From assembly GCF_058153355.1 (NCBI RefSeq), contig NZ_CM177019.1: a stretch of 64,000 nt of DNA, one strand, 5' to 3'. Both the position numbers and the translations under genes were made by a program. The notes beneath the pieces were generated by a model. That model ran no database searches, was not told the DNA's origin, and saw only the letters and a program-made list of their open reading frames with translations. Of the stretch, positions 6,917 to 64,000 are shown in pieces (within the stretch, counting starts at the first letter, position 1; each line of letters begins with the position of its first letter).

Positions 6917-7182
6917 ATGCCCCTCACAATCTTTTAAAGATTAAGTGTAGGACAGTACACAGGTTAACCAGCAAAAGGATTTGTCATTTTTTCGTCAGTT
7001 GTATTATTCCCCTTCAGGATTGTAAGGGGATGTTTTGCATCGTTTATCGATAACGGGTAGGATGCTGCGCCGATAGTTTTATACCCATAAAGAATAATGG
7101 TGATAACTATCATCGCCAGGATGAATAAACATTGTTCATGGCAACTTATATGACTTTTTCATTAAAGCAATCAGGGAGAGCA

Positions 7183-8794: not shown

Positions 8795-9856
8795 TTACAA
8801 CGCAATACGAATCACATCGTCCGGCTGAGTAGCTTCCTGCTGTTTAGTGGATTTTTGTTTCACACTGACATACAGCGTTTTGCCATCGGCAGACAGCGCC
8901 AGGCTGTTCGGATGGGTCGGCGTATCGAACGTTTTCACCACTTTATAGCTTTTCGCGTCAATCACACTGACTTTACCTGCCTGACGATGCGTTACGTAGG
9001 CTTCATTACGCGCTGGGTTAAACAGCACAGCCAGTGATTCCGGTGCCGCAACCTTCGCCAGAATATTGCCATTACGGGTATCGACCACTAGCACTTCTGC
9101 CGCTTTAGAATCGGTGATAAATGCACGCTGCCTGGCGGTATCGAGGCTGATGTTGATAAAGAAGTGCTCTTTGCCATCATCCAGCAGCTTTTTACGGCTG
9201 AGGATTTTATTGTCGGCGGTGTCGATGGTAATCAATTCACCATCGGCATTAGTGGTGTAAAGACGTTTGCCTTTGCTATCCAGCGCCAGACCGGTACTCA
9301 TTTTACCGGTGTTCTGGATGGCGGTTTTCAGTTTGATATTCTCGCCATCAACGACCCAAATCACGCTCTCTTTACCAATACCACTGATGTAAACGGTGTT
9401 CGTGGCATCATCAGCTACCAGCTCACGCGGTTGCAGCGGGCGCACCTCTTCCGTGCGCTTACGATCATCCAGCACCAGACGGCCTTTCACTTCGCCCGTT
9501 TTGGCATCTATCGCCGTGACCGCGCTGTTTACGGTGTTACCAAACCACAACGTCTGAGTCGTGTTATTGATGGTGGCACCAAACGGCTTGAGATCGTTAT
9601 GGATCGCCTGCGTCACTTCCAGAGTGACCGGATCAAGACGATAAACCACGCCACCTTTATCCAGTTTGCGGCTTTGCGAAGTGGCGAGCCACAGCGCGTT
9701 TTCTTGCTGGCTATAAGCCATTTCGTAGGCACCTTTACCTACCGCTTTACGCAGCATTTCTTCTGCGGCCTGCGTACTGAATGATGAAGCAACAAGCAAT
9801 GAACCTAACAGTAATGAACCACGCAGGCGCGATGAAAACAGATGACGTAAATGCAT
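8795..9856 (-). CDS. yncE: periplasmic PQQ-like beta-propeller protein YncE
   Basis: 353 aa with signal peptide; repeated beta-propeller blades; K-12 synteny. Confidence 0.9.
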   Translation of the reverse strand: MHLRHLFSSRLRGSLLLGSLLVASSFSTQAAEEMLRKAVGKGAYEMAYSQQENALWLATSQSRKLDKGGVVYRLDPVTLEVTQAIHNDLKPFGATINNTTQTLWFGNTVNSAVTAIDAKTGEVKGRLVLDDRKRTEEVRPLQPRELVADDATNTVYISGIGKESVIWVVDGENIKLKTAIQNTGKMSTGLALDSKGKRLYTTNADGELITIDTADNKILSRKKLLDDGKEHFFINISLDTARQRAFITDSKAAEVLVVDTRNGNILAKVAAPESLAVLFNPARNEAYVTHRQAGKVSVIDAKSYKVVKTFDTPTHPNSLALSADGKTLYVSVKQKSTKQQEATQPDDVIRIAL

Positions 9857-9940
9857 GACGACTCCCTTTGATGAACCGATATTTTTGCTGCTTCACAATG
9901 CTTCGCTAAGCGTAATCATCGTTACGCTCTTGTTATAAAT

Positions 9941-9959
9941 GGGAATGGTAATCATTATT
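9941..9959. promoter_or_regulatory. predicted Fur box in yncE/yncD divergent promoter region
   Basis: gggaatggtaatcattatt matches the 19-bp Fur consensus GATAATGATAATCATTATC at 15 of 19 positions; yncE is a reported Fur-regulated gene and yncD is a TonB-dependent receptor. Confidence 0.6.
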
Positions 9960-10097
9960 TTCTCAAATGTGGAGCATTTCTTGCCGTTACGACTACAATT
10001 TTCTCAATTACTTAACGTATTGTGCCGTTTCATTTTCCATAAATTTACAATTTCATTACCATGACGGCGTTTTCCCATTCTTAACCTGGCTTTTTTC

Positions 10098-12200
10098 ATG
10101 AAGATTTTTTCCGTCCGACAGACCGTTTTGCCCGCACTGCTTGTCCTTTCCCCCGTTGTTTTTGCCGCTGATGAACAGACTATGATTGTCAGTGCCGCAC
10201 CGCAGGTGGTTTCAGAACTGGATACCCCAGCAGCAGTAAGCGTGGTGGATGGCGAGGAGATGCGCCTGGCAACACCGCGCATTAACTTGTCCGAATCACT
10301 GACCGGCGTGCCTGGTTTGCAGGTACAAAACCGGCAGAACTATGCGCAAGATTTACAGCTGTCGATTCGCGGATTTGGCTCCCGCTCCACTTACGGTATT
10401 CGCGGTATTCGCCTGTATGTGGACGGTATTCCCGCCACCATGCCCGACGGGCAAGGGCAAACATCCAACATCGATTTAAGCAGTGTGCAAAATGTGGAAG
10501 TGCTGCGTGGCCCCTTTTCTGCCCTGTATGGCAACGCGTCTGGCGGTGTAATGAATGTCACCACCCAGACCGGGCAACAGCCACCAACCATTGAAGCCAG
10601 TAGTTACTACGGCAGTTTTGGCAGCTGGCGCTATGGGCTGAAAGCAACGGGCGCAACGGGAGACGGCACACAGCCCGGTGATGTCGATTACACCGTCTCA
10701 ACCACGCGTTTTACGACCCACGGCTATCGTGATCATAGTGGCGCACAGAAAAATTTAGCCAATGCCAAACTGGGTGTACGCATTGATGACGCCAGCAAAT
10801 TAAGCCTGATTTTCAATAGTGTGGATATCAAAGCAGATGACCCTGGTGGGCTAACCGAAGCAGAATGGAAGGCGAATCCGCAACAAGCGCCACGCGCTGA
10901 ACAGTACGACACGCGAAAAACCATCAAGCAAACTCAGGCTGGGTTGCGCTATGAACGTAGCCTAAGTTCGCAGGATGATATGAATGTGATGATGTATGCC
11001 GGAGAACGAGAAACGACCCAGTACCAGTCAATCCCAATGTCCCCCCAACTTAACCCATCGCATGCGGGCGGTGTGATTACTCTACAACGTCATTACCAGG
11101 GGATAGACAGCCGCTGGACACACCGTGGCGAACTGGGTGTTCCGGTCACGTTCACTACCGGCCTGAACTACGAAAACATGAGTGAAAACCGTAAAGGCTA
11201 CAACAACTTCCGCCTGAACAGCGGTGTGCCGGAGTACGGGCAAAAAGGTGAGTTGCGCCGCGACGAACGCAATCTGATGTGGAACGTCGATCCTTATTTA
11301 CAAACGCAGTGGCAGCTGACCGAAAAACTGTCGCTGGATGCTGGCGTGCGCTACAGCTCCGTATGGTTTGATTCCAACGATCATTACATTACTCCGGGTA
11401 ACGGCGATGACAGTGGTGATGCCAGTTATCACAAATGGCTACCAGCCGGATCGTTAAGATATGCAATGACCGATGCCTGGAATATCTATCTGGCAGCCGG
11501 GCGTGGTTTTGAAACGCCGACGATTAATGAGCTGTCTTATCGTGCTGACGGTCAAAGCGGTATGAACTTTGGTTTAAAACCATCCACCAACGATACAATT
11601 GAGATCGGCAGTAAAACGCGTATTGGTGATGGGCTGCTTAGTCTCGCATTGTTCCAGACCGACACCGATGATGAAATTGTTGTCGATAGCAGTAGCGGTG
11701 GACGTACGACTTATAAAAATGCCGGAAAGACCCGTCGTCAAGGTGCTGAGCTGGCATGGGATCAACGTTTCGCGGGAGATTTTCGCATAAAAGCGTCCTG
11801 GACCTGGCTTGATGCGACCTATCGCAGCAATGTGTGCAATGAACATGATTGTAACGGTAACCGGATGCCAGGGATCGCCCGTAATATGGGCTTTGCGTCG
11901 ATAGGTTATGTACCGGAAGATGGCTGGTATGCAGGCACGGAAGCGCGTTATATGGGCGATATTATGGCCGATGATGAAAATACGGCCAAAGCGCCGTCTT
12001 ATACTCTCGTCGGCTTATTCTCCGGGTATAAATACAATTACCACAATTTAACTGTGGATTTATTTGGTCGTGTCGATAATTTATTCGATAAAGAATACGT
12101 TGGTTCTGTCATTGTCAATGAGTCGAACGGGCGATATTACGAACCTGCGCCCGGGCGAAATTATGGTATCGGCGTGAATGTTGCGTGGCGATTTGAGTGA
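10098..12200 (+). CDS. yncD: TonB-dependent outer-membrane receptor YncD
   Basis: 700 aa; signal peptide; TonB box region; C-terminal beta-barrel ending in aromatic residue (AWRFE). Confidence 0.9.
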   Translation: MKIFSVRQTVLPALLVLSPVVFAADEQTMIVSAAPQVVSELDTPAAVSVVDGEEMRLATPRINLSESLTGVPGLQVQNRQNYAQDLQLSIRGFGSRSTYGIRGIRLYVDGIPATMPDGQGQTSNIDLSSVQNVEVLRGPFSALYGNASGGVMNVTTQTGQQPPTIEASSYYGSFGSWRYGLKATGATGDGTQPGDVDYTVSTTRFTTHGYRDHSGAQKNLANAKLGVRIDDASKLSLIFNSVDIKADDPGGLTEAEWKANPQQAPRAEQYDTRKTIKQTQAGLRYERSLSSQDDMNVMMYAGERETTQYQSIPMSPQLNPSHAGGVITLQRHYQGIDSRWTHRGELGVPVTFTTGLNYENMSENRKGYNNFRLNSGVPEYGQKGELRRDERNLMWNVDPYLQTQWQLTEKLSLDAGVRYSSVWFDSNDHYITPGNGDDSGDASYHKWLPAGSLRYAMTDAWNIYLAAGRGFETPTINELSYRADGQSGMNFGLKPSTNDTIEIGSKTRIGDGLLSLALFQTDTDDEIVVDSSSGGRTTYKNAGKTRRQGAELAWDQRFAGDFRIKASWTWLDATYRSNVCNEHDCNGNRMPGIARNMGFASIGYVPEDGWYAGTEARYMGDIMADDENTAKAPSYTLVGLFSGYKYNYHNLTVDLFGRVDNLFDKEYVGSVIVNESNGRYYEPAPGRNYGIGVNVAWRFE

Positions 12201-49984: not shown

Positions 49985-52747
<2,763 letters not shown>

Positions 52748-63371: not shown

Positions 63372-64000
63372 GAGAAATCCTTTTCAATGAATGACATTTC
63401 AAATAATAAAATATGAGTAATAGATAAGAAATAGCCACAGGCTGTGTCATGATTTAATGCCTGCTCTTGAAATTTTATTTAGCAATCCCAGAACATTCAA
63501 CTTAATTAGTATTTCGAAACCTCAATGTAGACACATAAAAAACAAATTATTCGATTACTTAGGCTATTTGTTGCATTAATACACATCCTCTAACAATAAT
63601 CAGACAAAAAGCAATGTCAGCGTCAAATTGGGTAGCTGATTCATATTACTGACCACTCCGGAAATTCATTCATCGTGAAAATATTAACATTTCAACCATG
63701 TTCCATTTAATCAACCCACTGAAAATCTGGAGGTTATCTACTGCGGTTTGTTGTTGACTGCCCCTGACAGGTTTACCAGGCGTTGACAGAAGATGAGGCT
63801 TGCAAGATGCTAAAAACAATGTGGTGTTACAAGCAATCCCATAAACCTCGTAACTTCACTTAAATGAGCGATGCCGTCCATATTTGGGTTGACTATAAAA
63901 ACCCTTAATATTGAGGTTGATGATGATATTCATGATGGCATTGGAAAAATAGGACACCCATAAAATATCTATACAGCCTTTAAATTAAATCATTGAAATA

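Follow-up and report, generated by a model that had tools for sequence, protein, structure and literature searches.

A covarying stem-loop next to a predicted RyhB site in the leader of the Fur-regulated Escherichia coli gene yncE

The divergent control region between yncE and yncD, contained in a 64,000-nucleotide stretch of Escherichia coli DNA (contig NZ_CM177019.1 of RefSeq assembly GCF_058153355.1, referred to as the window throughout), carries a short palindrome beside a match to the consensus of the iron regulator Fur. Our analysis indicates that this palindrome corresponds to a conserved RNA stem-loop in the yncE leader, the existence and strand of which are well supported by the comparison of orthologous sequences. 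With a Fur operator lying over the promoter and a predicted pairing site for the small RNA (sRNA) RyhB located directly 3′ of the hairpin, yncE is probably subject to two layers of iron control, one exerted by Fur on promoter DNA and the other acting through the hairpin and the RyhB site in the leader RNA. We infer the connection of the hairpin with RyhB, as well as its exact role, from the comparison of loci described below. The useful outcome of the work lies in the reinterpretation of the palindrome, the Fur part being already known and yncE counting among the textbook members of the core Fur regulon.

The palindrome and the yncE leader RNA

The queried stretch is 100% identical to that of one sequenced E. 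coli strain and 99.8% identical to K-12 MG1655, and the K-12 coordinate at this locus (NC_000913.3) equals 1533163 minus the window coordinate. According to its open reading frame (ORF) and the RefSeq annotation, the yncE coding sequence (CDS) occupies 8795-9856 on the minus strand and encodes a periplasmic, seven-bladed beta-propeller protein of 353 amino acids (aa), separated from yncD by a divergent intergenic region of 241 bp (9857-10097). A genome-wide map placed the yncE transcription start site (TSS) at 1521251(+) in NC_000913.2, with 489 reads and a 5′ untranslated region (UTR) of 80 nt (Kim et al. 2012, PMC3415461, supplementary table). This TSS corresponds to position 9936 on the minus strand of the window, and the upstream sequence quoted for it, ...GATTACCATTCCCATTTA, is identical to that of the window. 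For comparison across species, 80 orthologous loci were fetched from Enterobacteriaceae, 79 of which were usable; the hairpin and RyhB counts given here refer to 73 distinct leaders, and the counts of UTR length and upstream ORFs to 78. The inferred yncE UTR measured 74 to 84 nt in 75 of these 78 leaders.

A preliminary description of the region, made from the sequence alone, had reported a perfect palindrome, GCGTAA-tcatcg-TTACGC, at 9910-9927. The palindrome is present as described, and its arms are really 7 nt long on each side (AGCGTAA/TTACGCT, 9909-9915 and 9922-9928) around a 6-nt spacer. Its distance from the Fur box, given as about 20 bp, stands as an approximation, with 12 bp measured from edge to edge and about 31 bp from center to center. 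Taken as a single-sequence feature, the palindrome is not significant, since shuffling the 241-bp region produces a perfect 7-nt inverted repeat with a loop of 3 to 10 nt in 8.7% of cases (and a 6-nt repeat in 33%); its reality rests on covariation across species. The perfect part of the palindrome falls at +9 to +28, downstream of the yncE TSS. Read as minus-strand RNA, the element forms a predicted stem-loop at 9908-9929, that is, +8 to +29 of the yncE mRNA, composed of a 5′ arm at 9922-9929, a loop at 9916-9921 (CGAUGA), and a 3′ arm at 9908-9915. This structure comprises eight pairs, including one G·U, and has a folding energy of -8.8 kcal/mol with a z-score of -3.35 for the isolated element.

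Covariation was counted on a sequence-only MAFFT alignment of the 73 distinct orthologous leaders, amounting to 511 pair cells. The two arms differ in sequence yet stay complementary, with 46 arm combinations among the 73 leaders and variation at every stem position. For example, the E. coli arms AGCGTAA/TTACGCT are replaced by AGCAAAA/TTTTGCT in Citrobacter, GGCAAAG/CTTTGCC in Enterobacter, CGCAAAG/CTTTGCG in Klebsiella, and CGCGGTG/CGCCGCG in Kluyvera. Standard pairs accounted for 95.3% of the 511 cells, and two-sided compensatory changes were found in seven of the seven pairs (123 cells). The resulting covariation score of 0.749 was reached by none of 500 shuffles (0.327 +/- 0.019), and sliding the 3′ partner by one to three columns, as a control, brought pairing down to 33-57%. 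RNAalifold independently arrived at this helix, its covariation term being -2.31 kcal/mol. On a neighbor-joining tree of the yncE CDS, parsimony counted at least 91 pair-state changes, of which 71 exchanged one standard pair for another and 39 altered both partners within a single branch. With so many pair-state changes spread over the tree, the covariation signal does not reflect one inherited event.

The strand on which the structure operates could be read from the use of G·U pairs, which fill 66 cells in the yncE sense versus 8 in the antisense orientation. Likewise, pairing was maintained in 95.3% of the cells as yncE-sense RNA, in 84.0% as antisense RNA, and in 82.4% as a strict Watson-Crick DNA palindrome. 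Binding of a protein to DNA would require conserved half-sites and would leave no place for G·U pairs, which argues for an RNA stem-loop. More generally, a perfect palindrome does not have to bind protein just because it lies beside an operator, and covariation together with the strand asymmetry of G·U pairs separates the two readings cheaply. The loop follows the consensus C-N-A-U-G-A, being CCAUGA in 35, CGAUGA in 12, CCAGGA in 6, and CAAUGA in 5 of the 73 leaders.

Several known or conceivable structures were compared with this element. No match better than E = 2.2 was obtained with Rfam covariance models searched over 9700-10250 at a permissive threshold, and no intrinsic terminator was recognized, the stem being followed in the yncE sense by UAGCGAAGC, with no U run. 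A CsrA-type loop was not adopted, as the GGA of a CsrA site is found in only 6 of the 73 leaders. Likewise, kissing of the loop (CAUGAC) with the start region (GUCAUG) found no support: its core, CAUG, is self-complementary, and changed loops such as CCAGGA and CAACGA are not accompanied by a compensating change in the start region.

Fur at the promoter and a predicted RyhB site in the leader

At the DNA level, a 15/19 match to the Fur consensus had been reported about 100 bp upstream of yncE. It is located at 9941-9959 (GGGAATGGTAATCATTATT versus the consensus GATAATGATAATCATTATC), at a measured distance of 85-103 bp from the yncE ATG and at -5 to -23 from the yncE TSS. At the scale of the window, the consensus match alone is merely suggestive, since 17% of dinucleotide shuffles contain at least one site scoring 15/19 or more; the 64 kb hold three such sites versus 0.23 expected. 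Scaled by simple arithmetic to the 241-bp intergenic region, the expectation is about 0.001 sites. Among orthologues, the Fur box scored 13-16/19 in all 79 usable promoters, and its block AATAATGATTAC(T/C)ATTC was almost invariant. The proposed -10 hexamer of yncE, TACCAT (9945-9950, minus strand), lies 8 nt upstream of the TSS and within the Fur box, and the proposed -35 hexamer, TCCACA (9968-9973, minus strand), is placed 17 nt upstream of the -10 from spacing and conservation. The -10 reads TACTAT in most other genera, at a position conserved in the alignments, and the -35 block CTCCAC is near-invariant in the 79 species.

Published data agree with this arrangement. Chromatin immunoprecipitation (ChIP) with exonuclease treatment (ChIP-exo) in MG1655 gave an intergenic yncE peak at 1521238-1521250 of NC_000913.2 (supplementary table of a Fur pan-regulon study, PMC10164565), which converts to about 9937-9949 of the window and overlaps the Fur box. 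The gene columns of this table are off by one row, and the assignment was settled from the neighboring genes. The same study reported log2 fold changes for yncE on fur deletion of +3.10 in MG1655 and +8.14 in W3110 (PMC10164565). In other studies, ChIP followed by sequencing (ChIP-seq) also found Fur bound upstream of yncE, with peaks over the Fur box, and placed yncE in the conserved core Fur regulon. Expression of yncE rises 16-fold under iron limitation, and a published PRODORIC weight-matrix scan also places a Fur box upstream of the gene. The iron regulation of yncE by Fur, as put forward in the preliminary description, is accordingly backed by published ChIP, expression in fur deletions, TSS geometry, and conservation in 79 orthologues. 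The Fur box is a genuine Fur operator of yncE, which is already in the literature and adds nothing new. Because it extends from -5 to -23, over the -10 hexamer, Fe2+-Fur shuts out RNA polymerase under plentiful iron.

Other Fur-like sequences were observed in the window. The two further 15/19 matches lie at 51670-51688, inside an ORF of 376 aa (51617-52747, minus strand), and at 63919-63937, near the window end. A 14/19 match, AATAATGGTGATAACTATC, is found at 7093-7111, between yncG and ansP and roughly 75-90 bp ahead of the ansP start; on fur deletion, the log2 fold change of ansP was -1.39 in MG1655, with no fall in W3110.

At the RNA level, a predicted RyhB pairing site, GCGAAGCAUUGUGAAGCAGC, occupies 9887-9906 on the minus strand (+31 to +50; 1523257-1523276 in K-12 NC_000913.3). 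It is complementary to nt 41-59 of RyhB, with a hybrid energy of -20.1 kcal/mol in E. coli. After the hairpin, the most conserved part of the leader is GGAAGC(A/G)AUGU.., which is complementary to the RyhB core, and the near-invariant columns GAAGC..TGT fall in the predicted site. The RyhB core itself, GCACGACAUUGCUCACAUUGCUUCCAGU, is the conserved part of Rfam RF00057; the RyhB sequence was checked against E. coli genomes, where it matches at 100% identity over 90 nt, lies between yhhX and yhhY, and is called RF00057 by Rfam. Across the 73 leaders, the duplex with the RyhB core had a mean energy of -22.3 kcal/mol versus -12.0 +/- 1.2 for shuffled cores, and in 72 of them the best duplex begins 0-7 nt 3′ of the hairpin. 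The yncE leader is just 35-39 nt long in one clade, formed by Pseudescherichia vulneris with two relatives (L029, L035, and L037); the Fur box and the Shine-Dalgarno sequence are kept, and the hairpin and the RyhB-complementary block are both gone, which amounts to a natural deletion of the whole RNA module. The contiguity of the two elements in 72 of 73 leaders and their joint loss in this clade speak for a link between the hairpin and the response to RyhB.

That RyhB activates yncE has been reported before. RyhB raises both the translation and the mRNA level of yncE, as determined by ribosome profiling and a lacZ fusion (PMC4666370), and activation was also observed by RNA sequencing, a green fluorescent protein fusion, quantitative PCR, and RNA interaction by ligation and sequencing (RIL-seq) (PMC8896160). 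Both studies describe RyhB-dependent activation, with the pairing site left unmapped (PMC4666370 and PMC8896160). A literature search, incomplete and with RIL-seq tables outside it, found no described yncE leader hairpin and no mapped RyhB site. The yncE Shine-Dalgarno sequence, AAAGGGAG, was read from the sequence at 9862-9869 on the minus strand (+68 to +75 of the mRNA) and is near-invariant in the alignment. The yncE leader can thereby be mapped in concrete and testable form, with the TSS at 9936, the hairpin at +8 to +29, the RyhB site at +31 to +50, and the Shine-Dalgarno sequence at +68 to +75.

Just downstream of this leader, codons 3-6 of yncE (9839-9850, minus strand; UUA CGU CAU CUG) are almost invariant in nucleotide sequence across genera, including the non-preferred leucine codon UUA. 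This hints at an RNA-level constraint on the early coding region, for which RNAalifold predicted no conserved pairing partner.

We propose that these elements act together in the following way. On DNA, Fe2+-Fur bound over the -10 hexamer and the spacer blocks yncE transcription in plentiful iron. On RNA, the palindrome would be the DNA image of a stem-loop of 7-8 bp within the 80-nt leader, standing directly 5′ of the RyhB site. The hairpin would serve as a structural part of the RyhB-responsive leader: by sequestering its own 3′ arm, it would keep the neighboring RyhB site accessible, and it may in addition provide Hfq or the mRNA 5′ end with a defined structure. When 5′-arm pairing was made unavailable in silico, the cost of opening the RyhB site rose by 4.3 kcal/mol in E. 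coli. Low iron would switch yncE on twice, by loss of Fur repression and by the presence of the Fur-repressed RyhB, forming a coherent feed-forward loop. Activation by RyhB could proceed through protection from RNase E, remodeled Hfq binding, or another route.

A more specific version of this scheme can be offered only tentatively, and we hold it to be possible without favoring it. The hairpin and the RyhB block may form a conserved cis-regulatory RNA module, which we did not find described, through which RyhB would activate yncE in a manner unlike that known for shiA, without unmasking of the ribosome-binding site (RBS). In such a module, RyhB might block an RNase E entry site, or Hfq might be remodeled with the hairpin and its C-N-A-U-G-A loop as a docking or insulating element. 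If true, RyhB-dependent positive control would gain a third example, distinct in mechanism. Positive targets of RyhB are few, so a conserved leader with no predicted RBS unmasking offers a reasonable system for the study of sRNA-mediated activation. No conserved structure masking the yncE RBS was predicted by RNAalifold across the orthologous leaders; the minimum free energy structure of +1 to +110 in E. coli pairs UGUGAAGCA with the start-codon region, a pairing absent from the centroid and from the RNAalifold structure.

A number of observations weigh against the proposed scheme. Folding of the full-length E. coli sequence gives the central hairpin pair an ensemble probability of just 0.33 (median across species, 0.73), and the fold of +1 to +110 is no more stable than shuffles (z = 0.54). 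The effect of the 5′ arm on the opening of the RyhB site averages only 0.70 +/- 1.47 kcal/mol, in a test without a matched control. With the RyhB site held open, the ensemble cost of opening the RBS fell by 0.72, compared with 0.50 under a control constraint (p = 0.07), the E. coli value being -0.25; as an open RyhB site does not clearly free the RBS, classical anti-antisense activation is not supported. E. coli RyhB was used as the partner for all species, and two leaders, L007 and L049, keep the hairpin and have a poor RyhB site. A review gives a CopraRNA net energy of just about -5 kcal/mol for RyhB-yncE, and yncE was ranked poorly by target-prediction software. That value is compatible with a hybrid of -20 kcal/mol, which would be offset by a site-opening cost of 6.3 kcal/mol plus the cost of opening RyhB. 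Finally, the loop consensus is not accounted for by the model, and the RNA evidence for the leader is wholly comparative or thermodynamic.

Alternative readings of the palindrome

The main rival to a RyhB-linked hairpin is an mRNA element that acts at the 5′ end independently of RyhB, either by protecting the transcript from decay by RppH and RNase E, as in ompA and papA, or by setting basal stability or translation. A stabilizing role would agree with the location of the hairpin near the 5′ end (+8 to +29) and its conservation by covariation, and a published tiling-array study found yncE mRNA abundance altered in RNase mutants. The persistence of the hairpin in L007 and L049 despite a poor RyhB site also means that it may have a RyhB-independent role. 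However, the E. coli stem begins only after seven unpaired nucleotides, more than is generally tolerated by elements of the ompA type, and a RyhB-independent stabilizer leaves aside the contiguity of the hairpin with the RyhB site in 72 of 73 leaders and the joint loss of both in one clade. We judge this alternative unlikely. Far less probable is the suggestion of the preliminary description that the palindrome could bind a second regulator. In this reading, a second, dimeric transcription factor would use the palindrome as a DNA operator in controlling yncE and/or yncD. Such an operator would fit the perfect 7+7 inverted repeat with its 6-bp spacer in the divergent control region of E. coli, the nearby gene for a GntR-family regulator, mcbR, and the citation of RegulonDB as naming a second yncE regulator, MarA. 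This suggestion did not survive the comparison of species, since the half-sites are unconserved (46 arm combinations among 73 leaders) and strict Watson-Crick symmetry is kept in 82.4% of cells versus 95.3% when yncE-sense G·U pairs are allowed. Moreover, the palindrome lies at +9 to +28, downstream of the TSS, and is within chance as a single-sequence feature, and the sole marbox-like sequence in the control region is found elsewhere, at 10010-10028.

The remaining readings fare no better when confronted with the alignments. That the palindrome is a second, weak Fur site, extending Fur polymerization downstream of the main box, seems to us highly improbable. The octamer GTAATCAT does occur in both the palindrome (9912-9919) and the Fur box (9948-9955), exactly 36 bp (6 × 6) apart, but this repeat is Escherichia-specific and appears coincidental. 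The best 19-mer overlapping the E. coli hairpin reaches 12/19 (9905-9923 by hand), and a portion of the main box is similar to ATGA(T/C)T, the conserved loop together with the base that follows it; over the 79 orthologues, however, the best score across the hairpin ranges from 7 to 12/19 (median, 9), compared with 9-11 elsewhere in the leaders and 13-16 for the main box. A Fur site also does not explain compensatory changes in the arms, and the MG1655 ChIP-exo peak lies at about 9937-9949, not over the palindrome. We give equally little credence to a short upstream ORF (uORF) starting at the loop AUG and coupled to yncE translation, by analogy with uof-fur. In E. coli, the loop AUG opens an ORF of eight codons, MITLSEAL (9893-9919, minus strand; the A of the ATG is at 9919, K-12 1523244), with its stop codon UGA inside the RyhB site. 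An ATG is found in the loop of most leaders (CCATGA, CGATGA, CAATGA), a purine-rich AAGAG/AAGG lies 7 nt upstream of it, and Escherichia and Citrobacter share an eight-codon ORF that stops at the same position. Nevertheless, 10 of 78 distinct leaders have no ATG within their first 34 nt, several genera show CCAGGA, CGAAGA, CAACGA, or CCACGA loops, the ORF length varies from 2 to more than 40 codons with a variable frame relative to yncE and no conserved peptide, and no small gene is annotated here in K-12. Least credible of all is a functionless chance repeat or a plus-strand element such as a terminator-like structure, for which hardly any room is left. A repeat of this kind occurs in 8.7% of shuffled intergenic regions, and a simple scan gives a terminator-like match and a plus-strand promoter-like match at 9892-9919; but these plus-strand matches are no commoner than in shuffles, pairing has been maintained via many independent compensatory events, and the G·U asymmetry favors the minus strand. 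The mapped TSSs, at 9936 (minus strand) and 10069 (plus strand), also leave no mapped plus-strand transcript over the palindrome. The reading that we retain is that of an RNA stem-loop in the iron-controlled yncE leader.

The divergent neighbor and known systems

On the other side of the intergenic region, yncD (10098-12200, plus strand, from its ORF and annotation) had been invoked in support of the Fur box as a gene for a TonB-dependent receptor. This gene is pqqU, coding for PqqU, a TonB-dependent importer of pyrroloquinoline quinone reported to be neither iron- nor Fur-regulated; its log2 fold change on fur deletion was 0.12 in MG1655 but +2.95 in W3110 (PMC10164565). Nine Citrobacter loci (L008, L009, L011, L013, L016, L018, L019, L023, and L077) have no yncD within 1.5 kb upstream of yncE and still carry the yncE promoter, Fur box, hairpin, and RyhB site. 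Since the Fur box is kept in these loci and yncD is flat in the MG1655 fur deletion, the Fur box belongs to yncE, and the neighboring receptor gene does not constitute supporting evidence for it. We conclude that yncD/pqqU is not part of the Fur/RyhB module.

The yncD TSS maps to 10069 on the plus strand (1521118(-), 11 reads, UTR of 29 nt; PMC3415461), and its proposed promoter, TTTCCA-17 nt-TACCAT (10034-10069, plus strand), has a -10 hexamer at 10057-10062 that is placed from this weak TSS and matches the yncE hexamer exactly. Pointing away from each other, the TSSs of the two genes lie 133 bp apart, so the overlapping head-to-head yncD/yncE UTRs suggested in a review can be set aside in that dataset. 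A second MG1655 Fur ChIP-exo peak, at 1520944-1520980 of NC_000913.2 (about 10207-10243 of the window), was noted within the 5′ part of the yncD CDS, and a 13/19 match to the Fur consensus lies just upstream of it, at 10178-10196.

The intergenic region also contains a marbox-like sequence, ACGGCACAATACGTTAAGT, at 10010-10028 in minus orientation, with one mismatch to the MarA/SoxS/Rob consensus AYNGCACNNWNNRYYAAAY. Three such sites were found in the window versus 0.77 expected. A gap of 5 bp separates this one from the proposed yncD -35 downstream, and it stands at -74 to -92 from the yncE TSS. Its core, GCAC-N5-GTTAA, is conserved in most loci having yncD as the divergent neighbor, and no box of the ACnGCAC...GTTAA type was seen in the nine of nine Citrobacter loci without yncD. 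Although RegulonDB is cited as listing MarA as a regulator of yncE, this position and distribution suggest that the site may serve yncD/pqqU rather than yncE.

Both as an E. coli vaccine antigen and as a serological marker for carriers of Salmonella Typhi, YncE lends some practical interest to the control of its expression. In its DNA layer, yncE resembles the classical Fur-repressed promoters of fhuA, cirA, ent/fep, and ryhB, where the operator also lies over the -10/-35 region, Fur is bound in vivo, and expression goes up in a fur deletion or in low iron. We see no essential difference from these promoters, of which yncE is a known member, except that YncE is without an established role in iron uptake and that its divergent neighbor, yncD/pqqU, does not encode an iron transporter.

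The leader invites comparison with three kinds of RNA element. Like the iron-responsive element (IRE) hairpins bound by apo-aconitase, the yncE hairpin belongs to an iron-regulated mRNA and carries a 6-nt apical loop in which the first C and the fifth G are near-invariant. The canonical IRE combines a CAGUGN loop, in which AGU forms a pseudo-triloop, with a bulged C located five pairs lower in the stem, whereas the yncE hairpin has the loop C-N-A-U-G-A on a stem of 7-8 bp without a bulge. Lacking both the pseudo-triloop and the bulged C, it was not filed as an IRE, and the likeness is one of resemblance only. The 5′ stem-loops of ompA and papA share with the yncE hairpin a short, stable stem near the mRNA 5′ end that is conserved by structure rather than by sequence. 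Protection of the ompA type requires a stem essentially at the 5′ end, in contrast to the 7 unpaired nt ahead of the yncE stem in E. coli, and the yncE loop is conserved, which a pure stabilizer would not require.

The closest parallels are found in shiA and cirA, whose leaders, like that of yncE, are under positive control by RyhB in low iron; the predicted yncE site is likewise located in the 5′ UTR, upstream of the RBS. In shiA, the accepted mechanism is the opening by RyhB of a structure that hides the RBS. The yncE leader differs in having no predicted conserved structure of this kind, and opening its RyhB site barely changes RBS accessibility. Unlike shiA and cirA, yncE carries its conserved structure as a separate 5′ hairpin that excludes the RyhB site, and its pairing with RyhB is a predicted one. 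With cirA, finally, the likeness extends to both layers, as transcription of cirA is also repressed by Fur, which yields a feed-forward loop in both genes.

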